Positions 12,426-59,867 of a stretch of DNA of 64,000 nucleotides are shown here, in pieces. Origin of the DNA: a virus. The stretch is from positions 32,001 to 96,000 of IMG/VR virus record IMGVR_UViG_3300045988_117466; one strand, written 5' to 3'. The position numbers and the translations under genes are program-made. Below the pieces are notes generated by a model. It was given only the letters and a program-made list of their open reading frames with translations, made no database searches and was not told the origin of the DNA. Within the stretch, counting starts at the first letter, position 1. Every line of letters begins with the position of its first letter.

Positions 12426-12985
12426 TGGAATACATAGTAGAATATCGTGCCGTTCTTAAAGAAAATAAGAGTGGGAATATTTTAGTAGAAATTCCAGATT
12501 TGCATATGTTTTGTTATGGATCATCTATGACAGAGGCCATGGACGAAACAGAGAGATGTATTACAGAAGAGTGTATTGAGAGGCTGAGGAATAATCAGCC
12601 TCTTCCAATGGTTACAGTTAAAAAAGAAGATCTGGATTCTTACATATTGAAAAATTTTGAACAGACAATGGTGATTCCAATGTTTGTGAAATTTGATTAT
12701 ACAAGACCTACTGAGATTGCAGATGTTAAAGAAAAGGCTGCTTCTTTAGGGGAGAGTGTTAAAAGATTAGGTTCTAAACTGAAAAAGTTATATGAGATTA
12801 AAAGAGATACTCGGAAGTTGAAGAAAAAATTACATAAAGAATCTGAACAAAATCTTAAAGAGATGAAACAGATCTTTGATGAATGGCATGGAATTATTGA
12901 CAAGGATATTAAAGGATCTAAAGGGAGAGTAGATGAAATTTTAGAAGAACTTAAAAATGTAGAAGATTTTGATAAGGAGGAATAA
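12425..12985 (+). CDS. HicB-like fold protein with a charged coiled-coil tail
   Basis: The N-terminus VEIPDLHMFCYGSSMTEAMDETERCI resembles the HicB/UPF0150 pattern. The C-terminal half is Lys/Glu-rich. Confidence 0.4.
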   Translation: MEYIVEYRAVLKENKSGNILVEIPDLHMFCYGSSMTEAMDETERCITEECIERLRNNQPLPMVTVKKEDLDSYILKNFEQTMVIPMFVKFDYTRPTEIADVKEKAASLGESVKRLGSKLKKLYEIKRDTRKLKKKLHKESEQNLKEMKQIFDEWHGIIDKDIKGSKGRVDEILEELKNVEDFDKEE

Positions 12986-12988
12986 ACA

Positions 12989-15214
12989 GTGCAGGTAGTT
13001 AAGAGAGATTGTTCTTTAGTAGATTTTGATAGGACAAAAATTTATAATGCCATTATGAAAGCCATGAAAAATGGATCAGGAATTGTTAAGTCTGATGTTG
13101 CAGAACAGATTGCAGAAGAAATTGAAGCAGAATGTAGAGAAAAAGCAGATGATGTTGATATTTCTACAATTGAATCAAGAGTATTTTTAAAGTTAATTGA
13201 GAAAGATCAAGGACTTACAGCTAAAGCATACGAAGGGTATAGGAAAGTAAGAGAATTCCAGAGAGAAAATAATACCATAGATGATGAAATTTTTCGTTTG
13301 ATCGAAGATTGTGATGATTACATTAAAGATGAAAACGCAAATAAAAATTCAGTTTTAAATCCTACAAAAAGAGATTACATAGCAGGATCAGTTAGCAAAG
13401 ATGCGACAGTAAGATATTTGCTTTCTCCAGAGATTGTACAAGCACATAAAGAGGGAATTATTCATTTCCATGATACAGATTATTTTATTCAAAAGATGCA
13501 CAATTGTGGATTAATTAATTTAGAAGACATGCTTCAGAATGGAACAGTGATCAGTGAAACATTGATCGAGAAGCCACATTCTTTTTCAACAGCCTGCAAT
13601 ATATCAACACAAATTATTGCTCAGGTTGCAAGTTCTCAATATGGTGGACAGAGTATTTCATTGGCTCATTTGGCACCATTTGTAGAAGTTAGTAGGAAGA
13701 AAATACAAACAGAAGTTGAAAAAGAATGGGAAGGAGTTATTGTTGATGACAAAGAAGAACGATTAAGAAGGATTGTATCCGATAGATTACGTTTAGAGAT
13801 TAAAAAGGGTGTACAAACAATTCAATATCAGCTAGTGACTTTAATGACAACAAACGGGCAATCACCTTTTATTACAATCTTTATGTATTTAAACGAAGCA
13901 AGAAACGAACAAGAGAAAAAAGATCTTGCCATGCTTATTGAAGAAATGATAGTACAACGAACAGAAGGTGTTAAAAACGAAGATGGTGTATTTATTGCAC
14001 CAGCATTTCCAAAATTAATTTATGTCCTAGAAGACGATAATTGCGATGAATCTACAGAGTATTGGTATCTGACAAAATTAGCAGCCAAATGTTCTGCAAA
14101 AAGATTGGTTCCAGATTACATCTCTGAAAAGGTTATGAAAGAGTTAAAAGGTGATGTTTATACTTGCATGGGGTGCAGGTCGTTCTTAACACCCGATCGT
14201 TTCACAGACAAAGGGATTGGCAATATTGCACGCGCAAAAAATTATGATCCTAAAGAACATAAATATTATGGAAGATTTAACCAAGGTGTCGTTACTATTT
14301 CACTTCCCGATCTTGCATTTTCATCTGCGGGAAATTTTGATACTTTTTGGGAACTATTCGAAGAGAGAACAGAATTGTGCCATAAAGCTTTAAAAGCAAG
14401 ACATCAACGACTACTTGGAACGAACTCTGATGTTGCTCCTGTTTTATGGCAGTATGGAGCTTATAGTCGATTGAAAAAACATGAGCCAATTGATAAGTTA
14501 CTTTTTGACGGATATTCAACAATTTCTTTAGGGTATGCGGGGCTATATGAGTGTGTAAAATTTATGACCGGACATTCTCATTCTGAAAAAGAGGGTGAGG
14601 AATTTGGTTTACAGATTATGCAAAAGTTAAATGATAAATGTACCGAATGGAAAGAATCAGAGAATATTGATTACAGTCTTTATGGAACTCCATTAGAGTC
14701 AACGACATATAAATTTGCAAAATGTTTAAAAAATAGATTCGGTGATGATATTTTTGAAAAGTTAGATGGAAGAGATAGAAACTATATCACTAATAGCTAT
14801 CATATTCCTGTGTTTGAAGAAATAGATGCTTTTGAAAAACTTAGAATAGAATCTAAATTTCAAAAACTATCTCCTGGTGGTGCAATTAGCTATATTGAAA
14901 CGCCCAATATGGAACACAATGTAAGTGCTCTATTAGAAGTTATTAAATATATGTATGATCATATTATGTACGCCGAAATTAACACAAAAAGCTGCTATTG
15001 TGAAGAATGTGGCTATTCTGGTGATATTCCACTGGTTGATGAAGACGGGATGCTTAAGTGGAAATGCCCTCAGTGTGGTAACGAGGATGGGTCAACAATG
15101 GATATAGCCTTTAGATGCTGTGGCTACGTCGGCACATCTAAAAATGGCGGCAATCAGGGACGATATGGAGATATTCATGATCGAGTTTATCATTTAGACG
15201 ATAAGGAGTTTTAA
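12989..15214 (+). CDS. nrdD: anaerobic ribonucleoside-triphosphate reductase
   Basis: N-terminal ATP-cone (VVKRDCSLVDFDRTKI), C-terminal Zn ribbon CEECG...CPQCG, and the glycyl-radical motif FRCCGYVG. GTG start after AAGGAGG. Confidence 0.9.
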   Translation: MQVVKRDCSLVDFDRTKIYNAIMKAMKNGSGIVKSDVAEQIAEEIEAECREKADDVDISTIESRVFLKLIEKDQGLTAKAYEGYRKVREFQRENNTIDDEIFRLIEDCDDYIKDENANKNSVLNPTKRDYIAGSVSKDATVRYLLSPEIVQAHKEGIIHFHDTDYFIQKMHNCGLINLEDMLQNGTVISETLIEKPHSFSTACNISTQIIAQVASSQYGGQSISLAHLAPFVEVSRKKIQTEVEKEWEGVIVDDKEERLRRIVSDRLRLEIKKGVQTIQYQLVTLMTTNGQSPFITIFMYLNEARNEQEKKDLAMLIEEMIVQRTEGVKNEDGVFIAPAFPKLIYVLEDDNCDESTEYWYLTKLAAKCSAKRLVPDYISEKVMKELKGDVYTCMGCRSFLTPDRFTDKGIGNIARAKNYDPKEHKYYGRFNQGVVTISLPDLAFSSAGNFDTFWELFEERTELCHKALKARHQRLLGTNSDVAPVLWQYGAYSRLKKHEPIDKLLFDGYSTISLGYAGLYECVKFMTGHSHSEKEGEEFGLQIMQKLNDKCTEWKESENIDYSLYGTPLESTTYKFAKCLKNRFGDDIFEKLDGRDRNYITNSYHIPVFEEIDAFEKLRIESKFQKLSPGGAISYIETPNMEHNVSALLEVIKYMYDHIMYAEINTKSCYCEECGYSGDIPLVDEDGMLKWKCPQCGNEDGSTMDIAFRCCGYVGTSKNGGNQGRYGDIHDRVYHLDDKEF

Positions 15215-41759: not shown

Positions 41760-44700
41760 TTATTTACCGATCGTAGGTTTACGACCAATTTTGTGATATT
41801 CTTTTAGTTTGTTAGCTTGCTCTTGATCATAAACCTGTTTTGCAACAACCTTAAGATCATTCAGAACACTCTTATCAACCATGCCTCCAGATTCTACTTT
41901 GATCAATGCATCATAATAAGAAGAGAAGTCTCCAGTACCAGTCATAATATCTTTTGTCTTAGAGGCTTTAACAACTGATTCAGAAATCTTAACAGCTTGT
42001 TTTAGCACATCAGATGTTTCTGGCTTCAGTAAGATTTCGTCTCTACGGACAGTAGCAATACCGTGATCATGATTACTTTGGATTACACCATTAAGTTTAG
42101 AAATTGGTATTACATCATCAATGACACCACCGTTTCTTACACCTGCATTTTTCAGAGCTTTTAAGATTTTATTTGATTGAGCTTGAGTATATGTTTTCCC
42201 CTTAGCTAAATAAAATTCTTTACCCTTCTTAGAGTTTTTGCTAGTAATTACTCCGAGTTTTCTACCAAGGTCTCCCATTGGGCCTGGATTGTGTACAACA
42301 TCATAACCCTTACTGGCTAAATAATTATTTAGAGGAGACCAGCTTTTAAGCTGAGCTTGAGTATAAGGAGTTCCTGTGTGGAATTTTAATCCTAATGACT
42401 TAGCTTTCTTTTGAGCAGGAGAAAGTTGAATTGTAACACTGAAACTTACTACAATTCCATTAGCCGATCTACACGTTGGAGTAATTGTTCCCTCATTGTC
42501 GCCTTTTGTGGCTGTAATAGTACATGAACTACCAGAGCCTGACATTGTTACATATCCAAGGCTGTTAGGATACCAAGAAAATGATTGTCCAGCTCCATCT
42601 GGAGGAACAATATCAGAAACAGTAACAGTCTTACTTTCTCCAGGGGCTAAAGTAATAGATGCTGGGCTAACACTGAAAGACATAAGATTATGTGCCTGTT
42701 GTTCGGGTGTTTTCATAGAACCACTAACACCACTAGCATTTCCAGTTTCAACTTTTGAAGAATCAACCTTAGAACCCGTAATACCAGTTGTACCAGTTAC
42801 ATTGGTATCAGGATTTGCAACATTATTAGTCACAGAGCTGTTCTTGTTCTGAGTATCTTTTGCGTTCTGTTCAGGTGTCTTGCCATTAGCAGAGCTATTG
42901 TATTCAGAATGATATAACTCACTTAGACCATTAATAAGTCCAGAATTAATAGCAGTGTCATTAATCTTCTTAAAGACATCAGAATAAGAATCTCCAACCT
43001 GTTTTAAGAACTTGCTAATAAGCTTAGATTGTTCATCCAGAGAACCGCTTAAAGATTTAAGCTGTTTATCCAAAGACTCTTGTAATTTTTCAGTCAGATC
43101 ATCGTATCCTTGGGATTCCATAGAATATTGATGTTCTTTCTTAGTGTCATCCATCTGTTCCTGGGCATCAGCAATTTGAGCATCTAATTTAGCTCTTTGT
43201 GCTTTTGCAGCTTCTCCTTCGACACCCTCTAAAGCAGCACGCTGAGCTTCAAGTGCTTGCAAATCTTTTGTCTGACTCTTGATGTTTTTGTCGTAATCGT
43301 AGTATTCTTTCTTACGACTCAATGCCTCTTTACGTTTATTAATGACTTTGACGAGAGCATCAACTTCAGCTTGCATCGTTGTCTTACCAAGTTCTACAAT
43401 TTGATTCTTATAGTCATTGGTATTTGTTGCAGCCTCACGAAGTTGTTTGTTGATTTCAGCTAACTTACTTTCAAAAGTGGCATCGCCAACCATTCGTTTA
43501 CCATTCTCGTCAAAAGTATCATGTAATTTATAGAGAGCATTTCTTTGCTCCATAAGATCAGCCATGTTTTGTTGGCCTTGACGAACATTATCGCTCAAAA
43601 GAGCAATTTTAGCTTTACCGTCTGTAGTCAACTTACCTGTGTCAGGATCGTTTAAGTAATCCTGATTCAGCATATTCATAAGATCGTTATTCTCATCGAT
43701 ACGAGTATTTCTCTTATCAATCTTACGACTGCTTTCATCAAGAGGGATCATAATAGCTTCTTGACGTAACTGTTCATTCTTTTCATCTAAAGAATAATTC
43801 TCTTCACGCCTTGAATACCAATCATCATAAAGCTCTTTGTATCTTTCAGAATCCTTAGCAACCTTATTCATCAGTTCCTGATCAGTTTTCATGATCTCAG
43901 CATTGACAGCAGCTCTGTCATTATTTCTAGCAATCTGATCAGTTTTTGACTGTTTAGTAGCATAGTCGCCATGAGCTTCAGCCATAGAAGCAGTATGTTC
44001 TAAAGCAGTAGCAGCATGTTCAGCTTCATCTGCAAGTCTTGTCAATCTATCAATTTTGATCTGATCAATTTCTTTTCTCACATTTGCAATAGCAGTATCA
44101 GTATCAACAATATTATTCTTAAAAGTTTGAATCTGAGCTTCATATGTATTCTTTTGTTCATCTGTTAAGATTCCCTTTTTCTTAGCCTTATCATACTCTG
44201 CCTGATATTTATTCAATTCTTGTAGCTGAATATTTTTCTGATTCTGATATTGCTGAATCTGATTGTTTAAATTAGCTGTTTTATTATCAAAAGTATCTGT
44301 CCCTTGAGCAATATTAAGATCATTGATCTTTTGATAGTTCTCTAGGATAGCAGACGTTTTAGATGCCATAGCATCATAATAACTAACAACCTTTTCAAGT
44401 TTGGTTTGTACCAGTTCTTGTTGTTGTTTCCTAAGCTCTTCAACTTGCTGTTTGCATTGTTTAGCTTTATCATACCAGTTCTTATATTCTTCAACAGCGC
44501 TACGAATCTTATCATTACTAATAGTTTTGATATCAATAGACCCGTTACGTACTTTCTTGAAATAAGATTTTAAAGCTTTTTGGTTCTTAGCTTTTGAAGC
44601 TTTTTTTGTTTTAGGAGCTTTCTTAACTGCTTGTTTCTCAAAGCTTTCATAGAATTTCTTATATTTCTTATAGCCTTGATTATTAGCAGTGATAGAAGAA

Positions 44701-45189
44701 CCAACACTCTTTAAAGCTTCATCGTAATCATTAACAGCAGAAGTAAGATCATGAACATTTTCTGCTTTAGCTGTCCAAAGATCAGTAGCAGCAGAAAGAT
44801 TTTCAATCTTTACTTCAATGAAATCAAAAGCTTTACCTATCTTATTAAGATAATTTTCAAGAGCTGATTTCTTAGATTTGGTTTTCTTCTTACCATTCCC
44901 AGAACCAGACTTACCAGAACCGGTTTTAGATTTACTAGAAGAAGTAGTTTTCTTCTTTTTACCTACAGTAGTTTTACTACCATTAGATTTAATTTTAATT
45001 CCAGCAGAGTTAGCATGAGCAGATCCATGAGCAAATGCTCCTTCACCACCAACAATCTTAGCTCTACTTCCAGTTTTTCCTTTGTTTAGGAGTTCCTTTG
45101 TTTGTAGGTGATTAAATACTATATCACCACGTTTGAGGTTCACAAATTCTGGGCCTTGAGACCCTACTGTAAACCATCTATTACCACGT
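41760..45189 (-). CDS. tape measure protein, exon 3
   Basis: The frame is open from 45188 (RGNRWFTVGSQGPEFVNLKRGDIVFNH...), upstream of the GTG called by the ORF track, and has no RBS. Coiled-coil rich, with a Big_2-like segment. Confidence 0.75.
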
Positions 45190-45319
45190 CAATTATGTTT
45201 TCATCGGTTCGCAACACCGACAAGAGTTTTCACTCCTCATGCTTTCACATGAGTTCAGACTATATCTTTTACCTGATTTTATTGTATGTATGTTTTGTTT
45301 GTTTTTTATTTGTGGGTAT

Positions 45320-45353
45320 TAAAAAAGAGCAGAAGTAAAATTACTTTTGCTCT
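45320..45353 (-). terminator. intrinsic terminator-like hairpin inside the intron, after the cargo genes
   Basis: Minus strand: a 12-bp stem AGAGCAAAAGTA / TACTTCTGCTCT (one mismatch) with loop ATTT, followed by TTTTT. Confidence 0.55.
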
Positions 45354-45380
45354 TCGGTAGAGGTTAAATTAATTTGTTTA

Positions 45381-46268
45381 TTATGCTCCTATACTTCGCC
45401 ATTTGCCTTTTGACCATTTGCAAATTTCTTCATCATCTATACAAAGGACATATTTTTTATTCCCGATTTTACAATTACAATGAATCTCTTCATCTCGGAT
45501 ATCCCACCATGTTAAAGATCCTTTGATTTTAAAATTTACCTTAGTCCATGTGCCAGGTTTGAGATCGATGTATTTTTTATTCCCTGTTAGTTTTAAGTTT
45601 CTGTCATATTTTTTGTAATCACAATCTAAAGAATAAGCACCTTTAGAATAAATACGAATTTTTTTATTACTTGCGTTAAAAAGCTTTGTTTTAAAAATAT
45701 TTGATCGAGTATCGTATTTATGCAACCAGCCGTTCATATGAATGCTTTTATATGGTTTTACAATTACGGAAATTGTTTTTTTAAAAGTTGTTGTTTTGTC
45801 CCAGGCGTTTTTAATTATATGATTGTTTAAGTCATCATCATAGTTCCCATTTTCTCCATAGCGATAATCATCATATACAGCAAAATGGTCTTCATAACAA
45901 TCAACACTTAATGTTATTTTGGATTTACCAAATTTCTTTGCATCAACATATGTATATAAATCTTCAACTCCAATTCCTTCATAAGAGTCTAAGGATATAT
46001 TTTTATTAGATCTTGACCATGAAATTGAATTAACATCCAAAGTGTATCCACCCTCTTCATCACCATAGTGCTTCCATAGCGTAGCATCATTTTTCATAAA
46101 TTCCCCATTATAGTATAGCTTAGGAGTAATTTTTTTCATCTGTCCATAATACATTGTAATAGTTTTAGGGACAGAGATACTGAAACCTGCTTGAGCGCTT
46201 TTGGTGTTAATAATCCATAAAAAACTAAACACTAATATAAAGGACATTAATTTTAAAAATTTTTTCAC
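45381..46268 (-). CDS. secreted protein with a Big_2-like Ig domain (intron cargo)
   Basis: GTG at 46268 follows AAGGAGGAGGGTGCTATT. Signal peptide KKFLKLMSFILVFSFLWIINTKSAQA. Ig-like ISVPKTITMYYGQMKKITPKL...KSKITLSV. Confidence 0.6.
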   Translation of the reverse strand: MKKFLKLMSFILVFSFLWIINTKSAQAGFSISVPKTITMYYGQMKKITPKLYYNGEFMKNDATLWKHYGDEEGGYTLDVNSISWSRSNKNISLDSYEGIGVEDLYTYVDAKKFGKSKITLSVDCYEDHFAVYDDYRYGENGNYDDDLNNHIIKNAWDKTTTFKKTISVIVKPYKSIHMNGWLHKYDTRSNIFKTKLFNASNKKIRIYSKGAYSLDCDYKKYDRNLKLTGNKKYIDLKPGTWTKVNFKIKGSLTWWDIRDEEIHCNCKIGNKKYVLCIDDEEICKWSKGKWRSIGA

Positions 46269-46284
46269 AATAGCACCCTCCTCC

Positions 46285-47154
46285 TTAAAATTCCTTTGTA
46301 ATCGGTTTTGTGAATGGTGTTTCACTTTCATAATAAGTATATTGCCCAGGGGATACCTTATCAGAATTTCCATAAGAAACTATTTCCATTTTGACAATCT
46401 TGTCCTTTGTTTCAAAACTGCTTTCTTCCCACATAGATTGATATGCTTTTAAATTATAGTAGTATAGAGATTGATCGCTTACTACGGTTCCATTTTTATC
46501 ATAAAAACGAATATCAATATTGGCCATATCATAATCATAGTCTGTTAGATTTTTGATTTTTATTCTATATGTCCGATATCCGTATGTAGATGCTTTGACT
46601 TCAATTTTTTCAATTTTATACGTGTCATCTATAAGCGTGGCTCCTTTCGGACAATATCCATTCTCTTTTATAAGTTCGTCATATGATTTCTTATCCCCTT
46701 TGGTTGTAAAAGAAAGATGTGTCTGATCAACTAACTTTTTTAGAATTTCCGCACGCTGGCTATTGTATACATAATAATTGTATTGTATCTTAGTCGGAGC
46801 ACTGGTGTAATCATCAAATAAATCATTTTGTGTATTTAAGGTTTTAATATATTCAGAAATTAAATTTTGTGTATTCTTGTTTTCGAATTGGATTTTAGTT
46901 TCTGAATATTTGTTTAGTGGTTTTAATTCAGTAGCGATATACTTTTGCATCATAGCTGCGTAGTCAGATTGAGATTGATTACTATCATCGGTCTTATCAC
47001 TAATCTCCCATCTTTTTTCGAGCCCAGTTTTTAAATCATTTGCTACTTGTTTGTCTGTGATTTTGGCTTCTTTTTGAGGAGCATCTTTCCCACAAGCACA
47101 AAATAAACATAAACTTGTAAGAAGCATACATCCAATTAAAATTTTCTTTTTCAT
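46285..47154 (-). CDS. putative lipoprotein (intron cargo)
   Basis: The ATG at 47154 follows GGAGGGAAAATGT. MKKKILIGCMLLTSLCLFCACGKD is a lipoprotein-type signal with Cys near the cleavage region. Confidence 0.6.
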   Translation of the reverse strand: MKKKILIGCMLLTSLCLFCACGKDAPQKEAKITDKQVANDLKTGLEKRWEISDKTDDSNQSQSDYAAMMQKYIATELKPLNKYSETKIQFENKNTQNLISEYIKTLNTQNDLFDDYTSAPTKIQYNYYVYNSQRAEILKKLVDQTHLSFTTKGDKKSYDELIKENGYCPKGATLIDDTYKIEKIEVKASTYGYRTYRIKIKNLTDYDYDMANIDIRFYDKNGTVVSDQSLYYYNLKAYQSMWEESSFETKDKIVKMEIVSYGNSDKVSPGQYTYYESETPFTKPITKEF

Positions 47155-47542
47155 ACATTTTCCCTCCATAATTTATTTATAAAGCAATTATACATTATTT
47201 GACATGTTTTTCATAGAGAGAATATTTGTTTATCATATTTATCAGGTAATTTATCATTTCGATTTAAACATTACTGTACCGCCATTAGCTTGCGGCTCTA
47301 CTCCTCATAAGAGGATAGTCGTTGAACCTTATCCTATTCGGATCTTGGCTGCTGATTGTCCATTGTAGCAGAAGCAGGGGATTTAACCTCGCTTCCATAT
47401 AATTAATTCTTTTTACTTTCGTAGCGTTCACATCTAGGCATATTTCATCCTTCTGTTGTAGCTTAATTATCTTTAAGACTTTCCAGCAATTAGATAAATT
47501 TTCACATATGTATTACTACATAAGGTCGCATATGTGGTTTAT

Positions 47543-50500
47543 ACGACAAGTTCGTCTCCTAATTCTCCTGTAAGAGCTCGTTCATCTTGTTTTAATCCCC
47601 AATCGCCACCATTAGCATGAGCATCTCCAGCAGATGATTTGAGCTTATCCGTTTTCTCTTGTAAATATTTGTTCTTTTCAGCCTGCACAACAGGATTAAT
47701 TTCTGATAAATCAGAGATTTTTGTTGTTCCCATCGCAAGAGCACGGCTTCCAAGCTTCTTAATTGTTCCGTGAGCAAAAGCACCAAATTCTTCAATATCA
47801 TCAAGCTCATTGTCGTACCAGTCTGTTAAGTCATCAACAGTACCTTGAGCGAAAGCATTTGAATATGGAATGAAAGATCCGTGTGCATTTGCTGTACCAT
47901 GGGCTTTGCCTTTCTTTTTTTTCTTTCCTGAGCTTTTCTTACCTCCTGAGGGCTCAGAAGGAGTACTACCAGTAACGAAATCAACAATTCGAGTGATATG
48001 TTTTGCTGCCCATCCTGCGATTGTTCCATCAGCAAGAGAGGTGTCCGCCTTAAGTTGTGCAGTGTTTGTAACTTTTTGGCTTTTCCATTCCTGAACTTTT
48101 TGATTCGCTTCAGTAATATCTCCTTTAAGATGTCCGGTTTTATCAACCTCAATCCCAAGGTATTCTAAAAGCTTTTGATTAGCTTTAGAAGCATCTACGT
48201 CTAATTTTCCTTCTTTGTCAATTGGAATATTTAAAAAATCAGCTATTTCTTTGGTGGCTTTTTTAGTATCTGCATCAACTTTAACGGTTGTAGACTTCTT
48301 TCCGCCTTTGCCAAGATTATCAATATCTTGTTTTGCCTTTTTGGTATTAGCCTTTACTTCAATAGTAACTTGACCTTTTTTCTTATGTTTATTGTATTCA
48401 TCAACAAGACGTTTAATCTCTTTATCAATCTTATCATTGCCAGTTTTTTCTACGGTATTATCTTTGCCAACCTTAAGTCCAGATTTTAACTTATTAAGTT
48501 GAGTGTTTAATCCAGATTTTGTTTTGATTTGCTTTCTAAAAACACCATTATCACTTTTGCCACTGACCATATTGGCAGTTTCTTTTTCAAGTTTAGATAC
48601 AGTTGTGTTTAAATTTTTGATTCTGCTTTTTAATTTACTTTGAGCTTCATTAAGTTTTTTCTTTGCACTTGCTTTATCATCGTCAGTTTTAGCATCTTTC
48701 CAAGTATCATAAGCATTGCTATAATCCTTTTGAGCTTTCTGTACAGAATCTCTAGCAGATTTAACTTTTTGATAAGAATTTTTCTTCCAGGATTCATATT
48801 TTTCGGTAGAATCTATAGCGTAATGGTTTTTGTCAGCTGTTGATTTAGCATTTGTAATAATTGAGTTACCATATTCAAACGCCTCTTCAGAATACTTATT
48901 ACCATATTTGTTTACAAGCTTTTTATCATTGGAATCAACAGCTCCTTCAAATTTGCTTTCTGCATCTTTAAATTCAGCCTTATCCTGAGCAATCTCAATC
49001 TCAAACTTTAACTTCTTGACCATCTCATCTGGGATATCTTCGCCAGCGTTTTTCAGTTTAAGAATCTGCTGTCTGTAATCCTCAATCTGTTCTCCTAATG
49101 CTGTTTTACCAGCACCATCTTTCATATTTTTCCATTTATCAACCAGTTGGTCAACATAACTTTCAGCTTTTTCGTACTGTTCTGTAACAGATTTAAAATC
49201 AATCTTACCACCATAATCTTTTAAACGATTCAGTACAGCTTCGAAAGGTTCAATACCCATACCCATTGCTTTAGCGGCAGTAGCAGTATTAGTGATCTTT
49301 CCAGAATATGTACCTTCAGCAGTTTTCTTTAAAGTACCAAAATCAGTATTAGCTTTTTGGGATTTGGCAGATAAATCATCTAAGAATTTAACCAGACCGC
49401 TATCATCAGAAGTAAAATACTTAGTAGTCTTAGCCCATGTCTTATCAAAAGTAGCAGCATCAGTCTTACCAGATGAACTCATAACACTTGTCAATGTTTT
49501 GAAATCATCTGTTCCAATAAGTCCTTTGTCACGTTCTTTCTTCTGAGCATTGAATGCTTCACGCATTGCTAAGTAAGTATCACCAGAGTCAGCTGTTTCT
49601 TTTGCTTGAAGATAATCACTCCAAGTAGACTGAGAGTTTGCCTGATTGATTAATTTAAGACGCTCTTTCAACTGATCAAGACTACCTGTCCATTTCTCAG
49701 TTTTAGAATTTAAGATATCAAAGGCTTGAGATGCTTCAGTAAGATTCAAACCATCAATGAAAGATTGAGTATCTTTATTATCACCAAGCTTTTCCTTGAT
49801 ATCTTCAATCATTGATTGAACATCTTTACCATCTTTTAAAAATCCTTCAAAATTTCCTTTATCGTCTAATTTGAAATCAACATTAAAAGAATCAGCCAAA
49901 GATTTGTTTAATTGCTCAATACTAACCCCATCATCTGTGGCAGCCTCTTTAAGCTTATCATAAGCATCTTTGGTATTATTGAGCCAATTCTGAACACCCT
50001 TGTTACTAGATTTATCATAGCTTTTAATAAACTTATCAAGAGCTCCTTGTGCTTTATCATCTTTAGCAAATTTCTTTGCTGCAGCAATAGTATTTTCTCG
50101 TTGTTCCTTGACCCAATCTTTATCTTTTAGATTATCTCTAGTCGCAGTATCTATGTTATAAGTATTAGATCCTAATCCTGTAAGGAAGCTTTGAGCACGA
50201 CTACCCAATTTATTATAATCAGTAATACTACCTGGCAATGAAGTGGCAATATCTTGATTGTATTGATCAAGAGCCTTTTGGGTTTTAGTAAGCCCAATTT
50301 TATATTTTTGAGCATAACCTGAGATTTTAGCGATTTCTTCACTAAGATCAGTTCCCTTAGGTAAATAGTCTTCAGTTTTATCCAAGATCTGCTTATATGA
50401 ACCAATAAATTTGTTCATGTCAGCTTGTTTGTATAAATCGAAGGTTTGATCCTTTGGTAATTTCAACACATCTTTGGCAGCCTTGTTGAAAGCAGTAGTT

Positions 50501-51531
50501 AACTGGCTGGTTTTATCGCCTTGCAGACCGTTTCTTAACTGAGTAGTTAAGGTGTCCATGTCGTTGCCCCAGAACTTATCAACACCAGTTCCAGAAGCTT
50601 TCTTAACATTCTCTATGTTACCTTCAACTAACTTGTCCCAAGTTTCATCAGAAGCATATTTCTTTTGTGCGCTTTCTTGTTTCTTCTCCTGAGATTCAAT
50701 CGCTTTGTCCATCAATCCAGATGTTTTAGCAATTGCATTTCCTTCTGCATCATATCCTGAAATAAGAGAAGGAGTAGTATCTAAAATTTCCTTGCGGATA
50801 CTTAAGAATCTCTCATAAGAAGAAGTATCTAAACTGATGTTATTACCGTATTCGTCTACACCTTTGGATAAAGATTCAAATTCTACTTTATTCCCTTTGA
50901 GAGTGGAAATATTACTTTGGACATCAGACATTTTGTCCTGATAAGTGCTACGGGTTTTATCAGCTTTTTCTACCTTATCTTTGTCATAAGTAGCAGCTTT
51001 CTTAATGTTTTCAATTCCTTTAGAAAGAGCACTTCCTGCAAATTCCATGATTAGACTTGCACCTAATCCTAATAACACATTTGCGGCAAAAGCACCAGCC
51101 TTAGCAGCTATGCCAGAAGCTTTAACATTTTCCACGAAACCTGCTAATCCACCTGCGGCAGATTGAGCAATGCTACCAGATTTTTCAACCTCTTTGTTGA
51201 ATTCTTCAAGACCTTTTCCATAACTATTTTTCTTATCACTAAGATCATAATTATTTTGCTTAGCTTGACCGTAAAGAGTACTAGCTGTATCACGACCTTT
51301 TTCAGTCTTCATTTCATCCTGAAGTCGCTTAAACATGTCCTCTTTTTCTTTGGTAGACTTATTACCAAAGATTTCAGGAACCATGCTGTTACTAAAGAAA
51401 TCCTGCAATCTACTTTGATCAGACTGCATATTCTCATAATTAGCCTTACGTCTTGTAGGACTAAGTGCATTCAGAATAGCACTACCAATTGGAAATTCAT
51501 TTTTACCAGTTTCTTTATTGTACTGTACAAG
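47543..51531 (-). CDS. tape measure protein, exon 2
   Basis: No ATG or RBS at the 5' end. Gly/Ala-rich hydrophobic segment (AAGGLAGF...AANVLLGLGASLIMEFAG), long coiled coils, ending ...GELGDELV(V). Confidence 0.7.
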
Positions 51532-51901
51532 CAAACTGTTTACTCAAGGGCAGGGAAATACCCTATTTTCACACTGGTAAAATATGTATTTGACAATCAC
51601 TAATGCAATATTCTATACTAATTATGTAACAAGAAATATGTATCATATCTCAAAGTAATAACACACATGGGGCTCACAATTCAGTGAGCCTTTTGTGTAT
51701 CTGAAATTAAAGGAGAAGAGAGGTTCATAAAGATACCTCTTTTTCGCAATTAACCTTGCAATATTTGGAAACATAAGTTATAATTAGAAACATCATGGAA
51801 TAATTAGTTCCCCAATTAATTATTTTCATACTAAAGGCATTCCTAGGAGGTAGGGATGCCTTTTCTCCATTTATGGGGTAACGATTCGTTCACCCATCAA
51901 A

Positions 51902-52708
51902 TTAACTTTCTAACTGATCTTCCAGATCCTTAATCTTAGAATCTCTAAATGCAATTTTCTTTCCAGTACTACGATGATTTGTTTCTATGTATCTACGTTT
52001 CAGATTGTTTAGTACATACTCTGCAGTCATTCTGTACATTGGATTTAGAGAACCAGAAGTTTCAATAATCGATTCAAGTTTATCATCGATCATTGTTACG
52101 ATTTTCTGCTTATACTCAGTTGCATTTAGTTTTCTATGATACTCATAGCGGTCTTTCTTTTTTAAATGAACGTGAACATCAATGATCTTATCAACAGTGG
52201 CTTCCAGATTTGTGTAATCAGATTCTAAAAGAACACGATCAATGTTGCGTACAGAATATTTAATTTTATCTGCATCATACTGTCTCTGAAGCTGACATTC
52301 ATCTGAAACTGCTACATCATATAGATCGTTATTATCTTGCTGAAGTTGTGTGATCAGCTCAATCATTCTCTCAAAAGCATCTGTGTATCTAGCTGTAAAG
52401 ATAAGAGCTTTGTTACCAGTAAACTTGTTTACCAGCATTGCAAATCCTTTACGATCAATATAATACATAGGACGCTCCTGGTTATTTAAATCAAGATAAG
52501 AGCCGAGGGAAAAATTTCCGGCGGCTAATTCAGGGATAACTTCTATAAAATGACGAATCTTTTTCATTACATCTGCATGGTCTTTCCCATAAGTCTCAGC
52601 CACATTGAGAGAAGTGGTGTACACATCACCATTGATCTCTTCAAGACCAAATTCCTCATTAATTTCTGCGATTTCACATTCAATAGCTTTCTTTGTTTCT
52701 TTTAACAT
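51902..52708 (-). CDS. Rha-family phage regulatory protein (intron cargo)
   Basis: TSLNVAETYGKDHADVMKKIRHF...PMYYIDRKGFAMLVNKFTGNKALIFTARYTDAFERM matches the Phage_pRha pattern. Confidence 0.65.
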   Translation of the reverse strand: MLKETKKAIECEIAEINEEFGLEEINGDVYTTSLNVAETYGKDHADVMKKIRHFIEVIPELAAGNFSLGSYLDLNNQERPMYYIDRKGFAMLVNKFTGNKALIFTARYTDAFERMIELITQLQQDNNDLYDVAVSDECQLQRQYDADKIKYSVRNIDRVLLESDYTNLEATVDKIIDVHVHLKKKDRYEYHRKLNATEYKQKIVTMIDDKLESIIETSGSLNPMYRMTAEYVLNNLKRRYIETNHRSTGKKIAFRDSKIKDLEDQLES

Positions 52709-52793
52709 AATTCAATTTCTCCTTTTAATATAAACTTAATTTCAAAAGGGGTCGCATTTCACGACCCCCTATCAACAACAATCTCACCAAACT

Positions 52794-53600
52794 TTAATCT
52801 TCAAGATCCCCAACAACTCTGTAAACAAGTTTCTGACCTTTACCAGTTACATAAGTCTGTGGAACAATCACATTGCAAATCACATGTTCACCAACTTCAA
52901 AACATCCGTTCTCAACGTATCTCTGATATGGCATGTTGTCCCGCATCAGGATTCCATTACTTCTCAGAATCTCAAAAAGACGATTCCTTCCAATGTCATA
53001 TCCATCATTCTGCAACAATTTGGCCATTGTGTTCATGTCGATCGTATCAGAAGAAGCAGTAACACATCTTGCAAAATCTACATCTTCTTTGGAAGCTTCA
53101 AGTTCTCCACGAAGCTCTGCGATTGTAGCTTGCTGAATTTCTAATGCTTTGAGTACAAACTCAGCTTCAGACAGATTTTTATATGGAATGTATCCACCTG
53201 TACGTCTGATCTGTGGAAGAACTTCAGATGTTACCCATCTTTTGAAACGATGTAATTTTTCAATTCTCTCTTCAATAAGGGGGTCATTTTGTGACACCCC
53301 CTTTGCTTTAGCAGGTTGCATTAAGAATAATAATGAATATAGTCCTGATTCATTAAGAACTGTGATGTTTTGCATTCCTCCAGCGGTTTGAATTTTTGCC
53401 ATTGTTTTGTCAGCTTTGTCAATTCTACGCAAGCTACGCTTGTGATTTGTATCTCCAAAAGCTATGCATACATCTTTTCCAACAAACCAAGGTTCATTGT
53501 CAATCTCAACGCATCTGATTGATCCAAATTCGTCATTTACGAAGTTCATGATCTGATTGTTATTTCCTACTTCATTTTCTGCTTTTGTTAAATTTGCCAT
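52794..53600 (-). CDS. Bro-N / KilA-C (ANT) antirepressor-like protein (intron cargo)
   Basis: FGSIRCVEIDNEPWFVGKDVCIAFG...ESGLYSLLF...FKRWVTSEVLPQIRRTGGY is Bro-N. The C-terminal MAKLLQNDGYDIGRNRLFEILRSNGIL is KilA-C-like. Confidence 0.7.
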   Translation of the reverse strand: MANLTKAENEVGNNNQIMNFVNDEFGSIRCVEIDNEPWFVGKDVCIAFGDTNHKRSLRRIDKADKTMAKIQTAGGMQNITVLNESGLYSLLFLMQPAKAKGVSQNDPLIEERIEKLHRFKRWVTSEVLPQIRRTGGYIPYKNLSEAEFVLKALEIQQATIAELRGELEASKEDVDFARCVTASSDTIDMNTMAKLLQNDGYDIGRNRLFEILRSNGILMRDNMPYQRYVENGCFEVGEHVICNVIVPQTYVTGKGQKLVYRVVGDLED

Positions 53601-53767
53601 ATTAAATTCTCCTTTTCTTCAGAAAGGTGCACCAAATGGCATAGAACAGATGGTGCTGATGATTTGCTTATCCTTCTATGCATATATGGCTAATTTACTA
53701 CCCCTTTAAAACACCAGGCTCTACCTAATGTTTTAAGACTCAATTAATGTGGTAAGTCTGCTAGAGC

Positions 53768-53796
53768 AGTATAAAAAGAGTATTAAATTATGTTAA
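53768..53796 (-). promoter_or_regulatory. candidate promoter inside the intron, upstream of the Bro-N gene
   Basis: Minus strand: TTAACA, a 17-nt spacer, then TATACT. Confidence 0.35.
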
Positions 53797-54233
53797 TGAG
53801 TATTTATAATATATCATATAAAATTCATTTCCCTATGTGCAAGCATGTTTCCATGCTGATAATTTTCTAGCGGCACATTCGCATACAGTTCTGATCATCC
53901 CTTTCTGATGTCACTCGTAAGGTGAGTTAACCAGATTCCCATTATGATCGATGGACGTTCCTCTAATATAGAGGCTTCGCTGCGGATTCTGTATAAATAT
54001 TGATCTTATTACTATATCTTAGGAATTACCCCTTGCCCTTAATACATCACTGTACTAAGTTAGTAATCAATATCGTTTAACAGTTCCCGTACATAAATTA
54101 TCAAAAAGTATTTCAGTTTCGGTTGTTTTCTAAGCAATCTCTTATTTGTATCACCATTTCGATACAAACTCGTTCTGTGTTACCACTAGATTGCTCTGGG
54201 CATTGTACATGAGGACAACTGATAATTTGCCCT

Positions 54234-57200
54234 ACCCAGCTTTCCTTTCGCTCCTGCGACTCCTAAAGCACCCATAAAGGCTGTTCTAAGAAGCCCAGCT
54301 TTAGTTACTAAATTTGTTATTTGAGTTCCAGCATCTACAAGTCCTTTGATAAAATCAGAAGAAATAGAAGTGTTCCACATTTCTTGGAAACTTGCTGTCA
54401 GCTGATCAACTTTACCTTGGATGGAATCAAGTTGAGTTTCGTTTTCACGAAGAGCTGATCCTTCTGAGTTTTGTGTTTCGTTGTAGACTTTTTCAAGCAT
54501 CTCTGGCTTCTGTAAAATACTGGCAACAATATTAGCTCTATTTTTTCCTGCAATTTTCTCTAAAATAGAAGCTTGTTTAAGGTCACCACCATCGGTAGAA
54601 CCAATTTCGCTCCAGATCTTACCCAATCCAAGTAAAAATTCATATGGATTTTTATAAGATCCATCATCTTTTAATAAATCAAAGCCTTTGTAGTCGTTTG
54701 ATGCTACTTTAGTTTGATTTTTAATGAGATCTCTCAACTGAGATGTGTTCTGAATGTAACCATCAACATCTTCACCTGCTTCTTGAAGCACATTCATATC
54801 AGTGCCTCGAATTCTTAAGGATACTGTTTTTAAACCAGCTCCAACGCTCTCAGGATTTTGCACGACGGAATTCCCAACTGTAGTAAGAGCAACTGACTGT
54901 TCATAGTTAGCACCTGCCGCCTGTAAAGCACTAGCAGATCTCTGTAATGAACTAGCAATCTCATCTGATGAAATAGGCTCTAAGTTACCGATATTATTCA
55001 AAACATCAACAACATTCTCTACATCATCAGCACCCTTATCGAATCCCTGCATAATAGAAATCAATGCATTAGTAGCATCATCTACCTGCTCAAATTCTGA
55101 TACATTCATGAGAATACCTGTCCACTTAGACATCTTCTCAGAATCTTGTGTGTTATAACCTAATCTAGCCCAGTCAGCAGTAGATTTGGTTAATTCCACA
55201 GCATCTCTACCGATATCTTTACCAGTAGCATACATATCTTTTTCGACAGTAGCATAAACATCACTCGTATCACTTGTGACTTTCTTTAACTCTGTCATTG
55301 CAGCATCCATTTCTTTGATGCTTTCAATTCCTTGTTGGAATCCTTGCCATACGACATCGATTCCACCCATTGAGATCAAGTACTTACTTAACTTAGTAAC
55401 TTCTTGACCCATATCTCCAACAATTTGTCCGAACAAACTCTTATATTCAGAACGACTCTTAAGCTGTGATCTAGCAATACCAGTATCCTGATTAAAATTA
55501 ATAGCATACTTTTCAAGCTTTCCATCATCTCTTGATCTTGCTTTGATATAAGCAGCCATTCCATTTCTACCCATACTGGTTTCAAGAATGTTACTGTTTA
55601 CACCAGAAGCTCTAAATAATTCTTCAGCTTTAGCTTCATTGAAATCATTTAAGGATAATCCTTCTCCGATAACAGTTCCCTGATTGTTCTGGAGCTTAAA
55701 TTGGTTTCTAAGTCTACCATGTTCAGTAAGCTCAGCGTTCAGTCTATTAAGCTCTCTAATATCTTCCTCAATTTCTTTATTGTCAAAGAAAACATCTCCA
55801 CTATGTTTTTCTTTTAAATCTCTAATTCGGTTAACTGTAGCTTCAACCTTAGTCGCAAATTCTGTTGTATATTGTTCAAGATCTTGACTAACAATGGTCT
55901 TTGATAAAGCTCTGTCAGCAGCATTTTTAACACGATCAGATTTAGGATTAGTATTCCCTAATGCTGTACCATCGTTTGCTCCACCAACATTTCCACCGGC
56001 TAAAACCTTGTTCATGTTCTTCAAGCCAGTAGCAATCTCACCAGTAAGATTAAATTTCTTATTTAAGTTATCAACCAGTCTTGTAACTTCACGAATTGAA
56101 CTACCAATACCAGCAAAAGCACCTGCGATCTTAGCAGAATAAGCAGTAGACTTGTCAGCTAGATTAGCAATCTTATTTGTCATAGTCTCAATATCAGAAG
56201 CTTTCTTGTCTGTAAAAGACTGTCCTGTATTGAATTTAACTTTTAAATCAAGATTCTTTTTCAGATCATTGATAATCTTCTCAACAGTAACTAAATCGTC
56301 TAATACAGCATCAGTATTGATACCAACTTTAATAGGCTCAGAAGCTTTTTCTCTTAAAGAAGTAAGCTTGCTTTCGGCTTGTGTTAACTCTTCATCATTA
56401 ACATTGATGTCAATTTTTGTGTCTCCGCTGTTAGAATCCTCTTTAAATTTTTGAGTTGAAGTAATAGCTTTCTCAAGATCTTCAACATTGCCTTTAAAAT
56501 TAACCGCAACGTCAATAGCATCCTTAGAGCGAAGTTCATTTACTTGTTGAAGAATGTTATCAATATTCTCTGTATTAGCTTTAAAATTAATAGTAATATC
56601 TATATTTTCTTTTGATCTTAGTTCATTAATTTCTTGTAAAATTGTATTGAACTCGGAATCGTTTGCTTTAAGATTAACAACGATATCTTTGCCTTCGTAA
56701 GAAGCAATCTTTTCATCAACCTTAGCCAATGCAGATTCTAACTGAGAAGTGTCAGCAGTAACTTTTACAGAAGATTCTTTAGGGTGTTCACTTTCTGTAA
56801 CACTGTTTGTCTTAGTTTCAGTAACATTTCTGCTTGGAAATTCACGAATTGCATCTTTGTTTTTGCTTAACCATTCACGGCTTTCTTGAGACCAAGGAGT
56901 TTCAATAGTAGCTCCTTTTTCAGCTTTAATAGATGTGTATGTATCAACAGTTTTAACAGCTTCTTGAAGACCTTTGGCTTCCTCGGCATAGATATTTTCT
57001 CCGTTCTTAATCTTTTCATTGAATTTCTGGATATATTCTCTAGCGCTTTGGAAAGTACTGATCAGGTCTTTGTTACTCATGTCTTTCATGTCAGCAGGCA
57101 TTTCAAAATCTTTATCAACTTCCCTTTGATGGAGTTCTAATTTTTTAACTGCTTCAGATAAGAATTGTGTAATATTTTTATCAACAGCATGAGTAGTAGA

Positions 57201-58307
57201 ACCTTCTTCTGGCTGATAATTGCTTAGTATTTTACTGTAATACTCGGCTTTCTGTAATTCCTCATCGGTAAGAGTTTCACCTTTGGATTGTTTTTCCATC
57301 AGGTTCTTACTGCCGGCTTTTGCACCGTTGTATTGTTGAGGACTAATTGCTTGTCCTTCTTGAAATTTATATGGTTTACTAGAGTCAAACCCAGAAATCA
57401 AAATACCTTCTTGGGCTAAAATATCACTCCATTGTTTATTGAATTGGTTTTTAAGTTTATTGGTTACTCCTGTAGTCTTTTTGATATTTCTATCAGTGCT
57501 AGTCATAGCCTGAGTAAGAGCCTTATTAACCTGTTTAACAACATCCTCTTCGATCGGAGATAAAATATTTTTTAAGTCGATTCCCTGGGCTTGGAACAGG
57601 CTTTTATAACCTTCTGTACCTGCAAAATCAGTTTGTCCTGTTAGCAATTCTTTTATAAACTTTTGCCTAGAAGTAATAGTATTTCTTAACTCACCAGCCT
57701 GTTTGAGCATTTCATCGTTCTTACTCCAATCAGAATTTGACATTAAACCATGCAGTTCTTCAAAAGCTTTTCCAATATCTTCTTGAGCTAGCATTCCAGC
57801 CATTGCATATTCTTTAAAATCATTTAAAGAGATACCATTTTTAGAATTACCATGTAATTCGTTATATTGTGTTTTAGATTCGTTGTAAAAATCTTTATAT
57901 TTATCTTGCTTATAAGTCTTTTTTTGTACTTCGTGTACCTTAGAAGCAGCTCTTGTGGCAAGATCACTGTCCTCGTAGCTACGTTTAGAAACCTTGCTTA
58001 AATTGTCGTTCTTAATTTTTTCAAGATCATTGTAAGTAGTTTTAAGATTCTTTAACTTCTTTTCTGCATCGGCCAAATCTTTAGATTCATATACAAATTG
58101 AAAATTTGTTAATCCAGTTTTATCAATATAACTTCTGATGCTTTTAGCAACTTTATCCATAGAGGATTTATTGATATTAGCACCAATAGGTACTTGGACT
58201 TGTTTAAAACCATTTACTACTTCGCTTTTAGCTTTTTCTAAAGAGGCTTGATCAACGTCAACCCCCATAGAGGCAGTAAAAGAAATTACTTGTGTAGTTT
58301 CTGCCAT
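54234..58307 (-). CDS. tape measure protein, exon 1 (contains the TP901-type TMP core region)
   Basis: RBS GGGGGTGAAATAATAA precedes the ATG. DDATNALISIMQGF...SSDEIASSLQRSASALQAAGANYEQSVALTTVGNSVVQNPESVGAGLKTVSLRI matches the TMP core. The exon ends ...GVAGAKGKLG. Confidence 0.75.
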
Positions 58308-59396: not shown

Positions 59397-59867
59397 TTAT
59401 TTCTCCTTTTCTTTTTTCTGTTTCTCTTTTTCTTTGCGTCTCTTTCTTCTTTGAGACTGAATATATTCATAAGTTTTCCATCCACCATCAATCTTTGAGT
59501 ATGCTACCCAATAAAAGTTGATATGAGGATATTTATATAGAAGTAATTTTCTTTTCATAGGTGCCACATGATCTGGCATACCTTTTACATCAATGACATC
59601 TTCATGTCCGTCTTTATATGTAAGTACAAAATCTGCCACATATTTAATAGGAAGATATTTTTTATCTTGATGTTCAAATCCTTCCTGTAATAAATATTCT
59701 TTCTGCCGTTCACAATAGGTGATTTCCCCTGAAAGAATACCCGGAAGAACAGCATCTCTGTAAAATCTCATCTCAAGAGCAGAGTCAAATACGATTCCAT
59801 CACACATACGATTATCAGTTCGCTTACTAACATTGTACTTACTGTCTCTTTGTTTCTTTTCGCTCAT
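59397..59867 (-). CDS. DUF1064-type PD-(D/E)XK nuclease-like protein
   Basis: FDSALEMRFY...KYVADFVLTYKDGHEDVIDVKG (D...(D/E)xK), with a Lys/Arg/Glu tail. Confidence 0.55.
   Translation of the reverse strand: MSEKKQRDSKYNVSKRTDNRMCDGIVFDSALEMRFYRDAVLPGILSGEITYCERQKEYLLQEGFEHQDKKYLPIKYVADFVLTYKDGHEDVIDVKGMPDHVAPMKRKLLLYKYPHINFYWVAYSKIDGGWKTYEYIQSQRRKRRKEKEKQKKEKEK

Follow-up and report, generated by a model that had tools for sequence, protein, structure and literature searches.

The window analysed here is a 64,000-nucleotide (nt) stretch of a viral genome, positions 32,001 to 96,000 of the IMG/VR record IMGVR_UViG_3300045988_117466. On its minus strand, two long open reading frames (ORFs) that appear to encode parts of a phage tail tape-measure protein are separated by an insert with two antirepressor-type genes. 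Unless stated otherwise, all features lie on this strand, on which the statements about the insert sequence were checked letter by letter. The first ORF as called covers 54186–58307 (1373 amino acids, aa) and the second covers 47539–51534 (1331 aa, start codon TTG). From the ORF list, the Pfam matches and the sequence, we assign 54234–58307 (1358 codons) to exon 1 of the tape-measure gene; the PhageMin_Tail/TP901 core domain occupies residues 1027–1195 of its product (Pfam PF10145, E 1e-16). Exon 2 is placed at 47543–51531 by the ORF list, the sequence and the analysis of a neighbouring intron, and where it ends, a second group I intron has its 5' splice site. The 2702 nt between the two exons (51532–54233), from the first base after the splice-site U to a terminal G, are interpreted as a group I intron. 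A Dit-like tail gene comes after the third tape-measure piece.

The 3' end of exon 1 can read ...AAG CUG GGU, ending at 54234. The 5' strand of P1, CUGGGU (54239–54234), pairs with GCCCAG (54201–54196, intron bases 33–38), which places a U.G pair at the splice site. GCCCAG and UGUACAA (54209–54203), which precedes it with one base in between, make up the internal guide sequence (54196–54209). UGUACAA is the P10 partner of the exon 2 opening bases CUUGUACA; it complements UUGUACA, exon 2 bases 2–8 (51530–51524), over 7 bp. TTGTACA occurs once between 47 and 58.5 kb, precisely at the predicted P10 exon site. The intron ends in ...CAGUUUG, and its terminal G is base 51532. The exon 1 end, P1 with its U.G pair, P10 and the terminal G had all been proposed in an earlier sequence-only reading, and each was borne out on the minus-strand sequence. 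Ligation would join AAGCUGGGU/CUUGUACAG (also written AAAGGAAAGCUGGGU/CUUGUACAGUACAAUAAAGA; the slash marks the exon junction), and the predicted product ...GAKGKLG/LVQYNKETGK... is in frame with the ORF 47539–51534. The predicted junction peptide is GAKGKLGLVQYNK, while the unspliced halves would end in ...KLGRANYQLSSCTMPRAI and start with LVQYNK.

Beyond the splice site, ORF 1 reads through RANYQLSSCTMPRAI to a stop codon (54186–54233). This tail, RANYQLSSCTMPRAI, appears to be intron sequence, made up of the P1 loop and the guide region, and to be non-coding, as had been suspected; in the relatives L001, L148 and L163, the frame closes directly past the splice site (GGT TGA). Independent translation of ORF 2 had been named as a finding that would speak against splicing. 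Its start has neither a ribosome-binding site nor an ATG; the ribosome-binding sites of ORF 1 and of both insert genes are strong and of the GGGGG or AAGGAG type.

The ribozyme core (53835–54195) lies entirely within the first ~400 nt of the intron, upstream of the cargo genes. It was assigned by a scripted helix table, RNAalifold, pair counts with controls and a profile built from relatives only. The helices were placed by anchoring on conserved motifs, picked by eye, and then checked by script. In the window they are P2 (54195–88 with 54140–33), P2a (54168–61 with 54152–45), P3 (54111–06 with 53940–35), P4 (54089–86 with 53986–83), P5 (54083–80 with 53992–89), P5a (54073–66 with 54004–53997), P6 (53974–69 with 53965–60), P7 (53949–44 with 53898–93), P8 (53935–30 with 53909–04), P9 (53878–73 with 53840–35) and P9a (53857–52 with 53847–42, closed by a GAAA loop). 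P1 and these eleven helices could be placed in canonical order in all eight sequences of the core alignments, which comprise the window type and seven relatives in versions of 357–542 columns. The G-C pair of P7 that would bind guanosine is invariant in the eight sequences (columns 386/447). As read from the sequence, P7 of the window is U-C(bulge)-GAUCAU opposite AUGAUC-A, the same arrangement as in L109. The core motifs resemble those of IA introns, and P7.1/P7.2 were not found in the core of the window intron.

Parts of this core had been glimpsed before. The Q-like string AATCCGCAGC is the 3' strand of P4. The S-like string AAGATATAGTA was misplaced: it sits in the P5 extension and not in P7, whose true 3' strand is AUGAUC at 53898–53893. 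The P-like string reported from the 3' part of the insert is no part of the core. The P5 extension (54002–54049 in the window; also in L109, L148 and L184) contains a conserved GGUAUAGUAA-like motif beside CCUAAG. By its sequence, the motif is similar to receptors for GNRA tetraloops, and the GAAA loop of P9a could dock into it. A weak Rfam match of this extension to the FMN riboswitch is spurious and caused by the GGUAUAGUAA-like motif. In the stretch between P3 and P4 (54086–54120 and equivalents), a GAAAYUGG motif is conserved, and L183 and L140 also have a covarying hairpin there (GCGAG/CUCGC and ACGAG/CUCGU, respectively). A pairing of YUGG with CCAR, directly 3' of P7, is possible in six of the eight sequences; it overlaps the end of P7 by 1–2 nt and was not counted as a helix.

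The seven relatives (L001, L109, L148, L163, L183, L184 and L140) carry inserts at the same tape-measure site that align with the first ~400 intron bases of the window, so that the comparison with homologous phages suggested by the sequence-only reading could be made. An nhmmer profile built from these seven inserts, with the window type excluded, had its sole match in the 64-kb window at 54238–53844 (E 8.4e-31). RNAalifold on the eight sequences returned P2a, P6, P7 and P8. Over the 31 pairs of these four helices, 93.8% of the cells are paired vs 73.6% after shuffling, with none of 500 shuffles as good, and ~38% are paired when the partners are slid by 1–3 columns. Compensatory changes occur at 20 of the 31 pairs. 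The window lineage has GAUCAU/AUGAUC as its P7, where the other lineages have GACUAU/AUAGUC or GAGUAU/GUACUC; relative to GACUAU/AUAGUC, the window has four substitutions and the pairing is kept. The sequence of P9 differs in all eight, with pairing retained.

The splice-site elements vary in the same manner. P1 exists in five versions (CUGGGU/GCCCAG, GUGGGU/GCCCAC, AUGGGU/GCCCAU, GUGGAU/GUCCAC and CUCGGGU/GCCCGAG), in which the guide tracks the exon codon. P10 comprises 7 bp in L183, 6 bp in L184 and 4 bp in L148. In each of these three, the long ORF downstream has a G directly before its pairing bases, and joining the exons at that point keeps the frame. In four lineages, P1 and P10 shift in step with the exon codons. 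Such covariation of guide and exon, together with P10, the terminal G and the framing, is the behaviour to be expected of a functional group I intron.

Homologous proteins show what the site looks like without an insert. When a 600-residue peptide spanning the junction was compared with the protein collection, most homologues of the first half stopped within ~10 residues of the junction, and protein P0002 (88% identical) begins at it. P0043 and P0053 match both tape-measure halves in a single chain. Open frames of 4545 aa (L021), 3530 aa (L145, a Faecalimonas metagenome-assembled genome) and 2295 aa (L173, Lachnospiraceae bacterium 28-4) run through the site. Therefore, the ORFs of the window are pieces of one giant tape-measure gene. 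An ordinary intergenic insertion between two separate genes, the other finding named as adverse to splicing, does not agree with these homologues. The site is uninterrupted in ~12 lineages, while the frame stops within 30 codons of it in ~20; the interrupted position lies in the hydrophobic segment just past the TP901 core domain. The phage is a large siphovirus-type phage with Lachnospiraceae-like hosts. A 17-mer of the ligated junction, used as a probe for the intron-less allele, gave 39 matches in viral contigs and none in tape-measure homologues, and a 35-mer had no match in the metagenome contigs. No GenBank phage was matched by megablast.

Interrupted sites were seen in the lineages L003–L005, L020, L148, L163, L183, L184, L109 and L001 and at the further loci L150–L155, L161, L165–L167, L170–L172, L174, L178, L181 and L186. 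Several inserts at this site were matched neither by the family profile nor by Rfam (none at E<=0.01 for L003, L020 and L178); these may be introns of other types.

Two genes occupy the insert downstream of the core. Cargo gene 1 (52794–53600, 268 aa) encodes an antirepressor-type protein with Bro-N (Pfam, E 9e-17) and KilA-C/ANT (E 4e-21) domains and falls into PHROG 130, 'anti-repressor Ant' (E 9e-65). Cargo gene 2 (51902–52708, 268 aa) encodes a Rha-family regulator (Pfam Rha, E 7e-22). The Pfam matches agree with the identities previously read from the sequence, PHROGs places both proteins in antirepressor or regulator families, and the strong ribosome-binding sites noted for both genes are of the AAGGAG type. 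An AlphaFold2 model of the Rha protein (pLDDT 79) shows a winged helix in the N-terminal half and helices only in the C-terminal half, and it had no PDB fold match at E<=0.001. The earlier observation that no nuclease is recognisable also holds: nuclease families were absent among the matches of the cargo proteins in Pfam, PHROGs, PADLOC and a PDB sequence search. None of the homing-endonuclease types LAGLIDADG, GIY-YIG, HNH, His-Cys, PD-(D/E)XK and EDxHD was matched in the insert, which contained the Bro-N, ANT and Rha domains only, and no transposase-like ORF was found there in the ORF list or by Pfam.

A promoter had been proposed for each gene. One promoter-like site, TTAACA-17-TATACT (53768–53796, 10/12 consensus matches), indeed lies upstream of Bro; no second one was found, and the number of such sites in the region (10 found vs 12.4 expected) is not above chance. 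The best promoter-like match of the region, TTGACA-18-TATACT (51590–51619, 11/12 consensus), is on the plus strand, ~60–90 nt inside the 3' end of the intron, and is aimed into Rha antisense. A plus-strand terminator-like hairpin (51669–51692) follows it, and relatives have an opposite-strand gene at this position. Past cargo gene 1, the minus strand contains a terminator-like hairpin, GGGGUCG...CGACCCC followed by UUUU (52744–52769), which was read from the sequence and lies under the T-run threshold of the terminator scan. The 3' terminal segment of the intron (51532–51901) contains several hairpins, some of them terminator-like, by sequence and scan. Its identity to the window is 94–98% in 12 of 13 relatives and 73% in L018, which has extra sequence.

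An insert with identical boundaries is present in 14 related viral contigs of 60–134 kb. The first 633 nt of the intron, comprising the core and the leader, are 97–99.8% identical to the window in 13 of them, while the flanking exons of those 13 are 80–100% (exon 1) and 84–87% (exon 2) identical. The zone of high identity extends beyond the splice sites, by ~260 nt on the exon 1 side and by at least 300 nt on the exon 2 side, as after recombinational spread. The cargo of these near-identical introns differs: Bro and Rha, Bro and another ORF of 136–153 aa (L006, L008), Bro only (L007, L011, L012) or Rha only (L016). These gene contents suggest that Bro and Rha are each dispensable. A Rha homologue (55% identical) is located outside any intron, upstream of the tape-measure gene, in L226 and L227.

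More distant members of the family carry 1.7–6.8 kb of cargo on both strands. It includes GmrSD_N proteins (one with a Schlafen/AlbA_2 domain), an S24 LexA-like repressor, ToxN, NYN, an M78 ImmA-like peptidase with a helix-turn-helix (HTH) partner, zinc-ribbon proteins and a TnpB-like gene. The last is a 516-aa ORF in the L163 intron (12479–14029) that matches the TnpB family NF040570 (E 8e-19, under the curated cut-off); because of it, the L163 intron resembles an IStron. The zinc-ribbon proteins (L148, 16462–18021; L184, 19584–19928; L020, 13419–13835; L003, 14074–14610) are encoded on the strand opposite the tape-measure gene, directly upstream of the 3' splice site, in four otherwise unlike inserts, with three tandem copies in L148. 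They end in ...GLFGL.S...GK...C..CG..F/W. No remnant of a zinc-ribbon gene was found in the window insert.

We consider, with a probability of roughly 80%, that the insert is a group I intron whose splicing restores the reading frame of the tape-measure gene. This agrees with the proposal made by the sequence-only reading and is supported by the P1–P9 core, the covariation in eight lineages, the in-frame ligation and the uninterrupted homologues. During late transcription, the core would fold and guanosine would attack at 54234/54233. The terminal G lies 2.3 kb further downstream; P10 and a peripheral long-range pairing would then deliver it to the site in P7 that binds G. Ligation of the exons would yield one tape-measure protein of ~3,800 residues, for which the second intron (~45154–47542) must be spliced as well. 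The antirepressor-type genes would reside in a peripheral loop past P9 and form a cassette that brings along ribosome-binding sites, a promoter-like site and terminator-like hairpins. The intron would make insertion into an essential gene harmless, and the ribozyme and the 3' end would serve as flanks for cassette exchange. The cargo genes probably serve the repressor/antirepressor control of the same or competing prophages and not the mobility of the intron.

For the long-range pairing, we found by eye a candidate 5' strand, AGGGAAAU (53827–53834), directly after P9/P9a, and a candidate partner, AUUUCCCU (51552–51559), 20 nt ahead of the 3' splice site. Similarly placed complementarities are AUUGGGA/UCCCAAU in L148, GACCAA/UUGGUC in L183 and GGGCAA/UUGCCC in L184. 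Their positions suggest a candidate peripheral helix that would loop out the cargo. In close relatives, one change in this helix is compatible with G.U pairing (L011, L012), and another breaks the pairing (L010). A local hairpin at the 3' end, AGGG/CCCU, is an alternative to it. RNAduplex applied to the post-P7 region and the 3' end returned over-extended structures, in which the window was no better than shuffles.

Several observations weigh against splicing of this insert. The main functional objection is the terminator-like hairpins after each cargo gene, on the sense strand and between the core and exon 2, because termination of the late transcript there would oppose splicing. The 3' splice site lies 2.3 kb from the core, and the long-range helix shows no compensatory change among the close relatives. 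P3 of the window, AUACUU/GGGAAU, is the weakest of the family, with five of six pairs, two G.U pairs and one A.A mismatch, and its position is not the one aligned with most relatives; relatives have a clean P3 of 4–6 bp (CCGAC/GUCGG, CUACC/GGUAG, CAGUA/UACUG, AUUGCU/AGCAAU). The spacing between P3 and P4 is 16–42 nt across the family, while J3/4 of group I introns is normally ~3 nt. The helices were picked by eye; therefore, their pairing percentages are no independent test. Finally, the Rfam model RF00028 did not match the window copy, either over the whole window at the gathering score or in two sub-regions (including one of 481 nt) at E<=10. The covariance-model search that had been recommended thus failed on the window copy itself and succeeded on the relative L001, whose tape-measure protein is 58% identical (37.3 bits, E 4e-8, under the gathering score of 50). 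The gathering score is a detection criterion and not a biochemical definition. Because relatives link the window copy to RF00028, we read the miss as low sensitivity and not as absence.

These objections would be accommodated if the ribozyme were a decayed relic, with ORF 1, ORF 2 and ORF 3 translated separately and the insert effectively an intergenic moron island. The silence of RF00028, the weak P3 and the sense-strand hairpins are in line with this. So is the finding that, among the ~20 homologue lineages whose ORFs end within 30 codons of the site, an intron of this family was detectable in some only. However, the predicted 3' splice site is exactly where ORF 2 begins, with neither a ribosome-binding site nor an ATG, and the guide tracks the exon codons in several lineages. 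The window lineage has its own compensatory substitutions in P7, the first 633 intron nt are 97–99.8% conserved where the exons are ~80–86% identical, and uninterrupted homologues of 2295–4545 aa exist. Decay is therefore unlikely.

The sequence-only reading had left two functions open for the cargo, namely mobility or maintenance factors of the intron and regulatory morons in a safe harbour. In the former case, the intron would be actively mobile, and the Bro-N/KilA-C and Rha proteins would be DNA binders that recruit a nuclease or promote recombination. Together with the adjoining ~260 nt (exon 1) and at least 300 nt (exon 2), the intron forms a near-identical block in tape-measure genes that are otherwise ~80–86% identical, which resembles spread by co-conversion, and a literature lead mentions Bro-N domains with T5orf172-type nuclease families of ICP1 phages. 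However, neither protein has a nuclease domain (Pfam, PHROGs, PADLOC, PDB sequence), the winged helix and helical bundle of the Rha model have no significant fold match, and introns with the same core manage with Bro only (L007, L011, L012) or Rha only (L016). The Rha homologue of L226 and L227 is not in an intron at all. A role in mobility is very improbable for these reasons. The variable cargo in near-identical introns, the extra-intronic Rha and the lack of a nuclease fit the safe-harbour alternative better, and the cargo genes are most likely passengers (morons).

An unusual, split or twintron core had also been considered, in which the cargo would lie between separately transcribed halves that are joined by the long-range helix and spliced in trans. 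The terminator-like hairpins, the candidate 8-bp pairing (53834–53827 with 51559–51552) and the P-like string in the 3' part could be read in this way. However, P1–P9 are contiguous in the 5' part, upstream of the cargo; neither the family HMM nor Rfam detected a second core in the insert; and the 3' segment has no promoter-like site on the sense strand, the strong one there being on the opposite strand. With no sign in its support, such an arrangement is barely credible. No feature supporting a group II intron was found.

Beyond splicing itself, the chances are about even that the conserved tape-measure site is a group I intron cargo platform, a defence or accessory island in which constant ribozyme and 3' flanks enclose swapped regulatory and anti-phage defence cassettes. 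The value of the locus is mainly in this pattern, namely an intron site that recurs among the phages and whose cargo varies. By means of the intron, ordinary phage accessory genes appear to settle within an essential structural gene without damaging it. In automated annotation, such a giant tape-measure gene becomes two or three ORFs without apparent relation, and the regulators or defence genes between them are taken for 'intergenic', so that the intron and the true length of the protein are missed. Introns would become places to mine for defence and counter-defence genes. The pattern also raises a question of mechanism, namely how the ribozyme reaches a 3' splice site that is 2–7 kb away, when the genes in between have putative promoters and terminators of their own and in some cases lie on the other strand. 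The expression of the cargo may be either tied to late transcription or shielded from it. Some members of the family are prophages of cultured isolates, for example those of Lacrimispora sp. HJ-01 (L178) and Lachnospiraceae bacterium 28-4 (L173, uninterrupted); therefore, the question is open to experiment.

The second interruption of the tape-measure gene (45154–47542, minus strand, 3' boundary approximate) is also a group I intron. RF00028 matched it at 47249–47548 (41.2 bits, E 5e-9), from P2 to the 3' strand of P3. Its P1 is formed by GUCGU/GCGAC, U 47543 is the last base before the splice site, and an S element, AAGAUAUAGUCUGAAC, lies near 45270. From the extent of the match and the position of the S element, the cargo is located between the 3' strands of P3 and P7. 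It consists of two genes for secreted or lipoprotein-like proteins (46285–47169 and 45381–46373), and no nuclease was found. The 3' splice site candidates, 45154 and 45161, are both G and both in frame; exon 3 covers ~41760–45153. Further group I-like inserts occur elsewhere in the TP901 core region of relatives, in L023 (~12700–13060) and in L148, L156, L163 and L181, whose matches exceed the query in length. That of L023 follows ...LDSISGQ and contains the motifs CAATCAGCAGCGAAGC and GAAGATATAGTC, then an ORF. Three genes upstream of the tape-measure gene, a DUF1064 protein is encoded at 59397–59867 (minus strand, Pfam E 1e-25), and the synteny is the same in L001.

Group I introns of bacteria and phages are usually viewed as empty or as carrying one homing endonuclease gene. 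In the nrdD (sunY) intron of phage T4, the full core lies upstream of an ORF in the 3' peripheral (P9-region) loop; its 3' splice site is hence far from the core and is recognised via P9.0/P10 and the terminal G. The window intron likewise has its core before ORFs in a 3' peripheral loop. However, the T4 intron holds one homing-endonuclease-type gene of ~0.8 kb, whereas the window intron has two regulators with putative expression signals of their own and no nuclease. The IStrons of Clostridioides difficile are group I introns fused to an IS200/IS605 element. Like the present family, they combine a Clostridia group I ribozyme with non-homing cargo at its 3' side and are spliced from a host gene. 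They differ in that the window insert has no transposase or TnpB and carries regulatory cargo, and in that one conserved site is used here, not many genomic sites. The fungal mitochondrial rnl intron that houses rps3 is a close analogue.

Phage morons and accessory or defence hot spots share with the window intron a variable cassette between conserved flanks, with ribosome-binding sites, a promoter-like site and a terminator-like hairpin. Their typical genes, such as antirepressors, ToxN, GmrSD, ImmA and repressor pairs, are also those of the family. However, classical hot spots are intergenic, whereas both flanks here belong to a ribozyme, of which they are the ends, and lie within an essential structural gene. 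Full-text literature searches returned no description of group I introns with antirepressor, moron or defence cassettes, which, given their incomplete coverage, is absence of evidence only.

A known parallel is found in the tape-measure genes of Bacillus cereus-group prophages, in which group I introns of the IA1/IA2 type (TMP-IVS1, IVS2 and IVS3) occupy three sites (Tourasse and Kolsto 2008, PMC2504315). As in the window, these are several group I introns within a very long tape-measure gene of Firmicutes phages; their P1 and P10 are adapted to the site, some have no complete homing endonuclease gene, and near-identical copies occur across phages (PMC2504315). They are compact and contain a homing endonuclease gene or no complete ORF (PMC2504315), whereas the window intron has a 2.2-kb cassette of two regulators, no P7.1/P7.2 that could be found and Lachnospiraceae-type Clostridia as hosts, and the unrelated genes in its relatives amount to as much as 6.8 kb and occupy both strands. 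Group I introns of tape-measure genes are already known, and the cargo is the new part.

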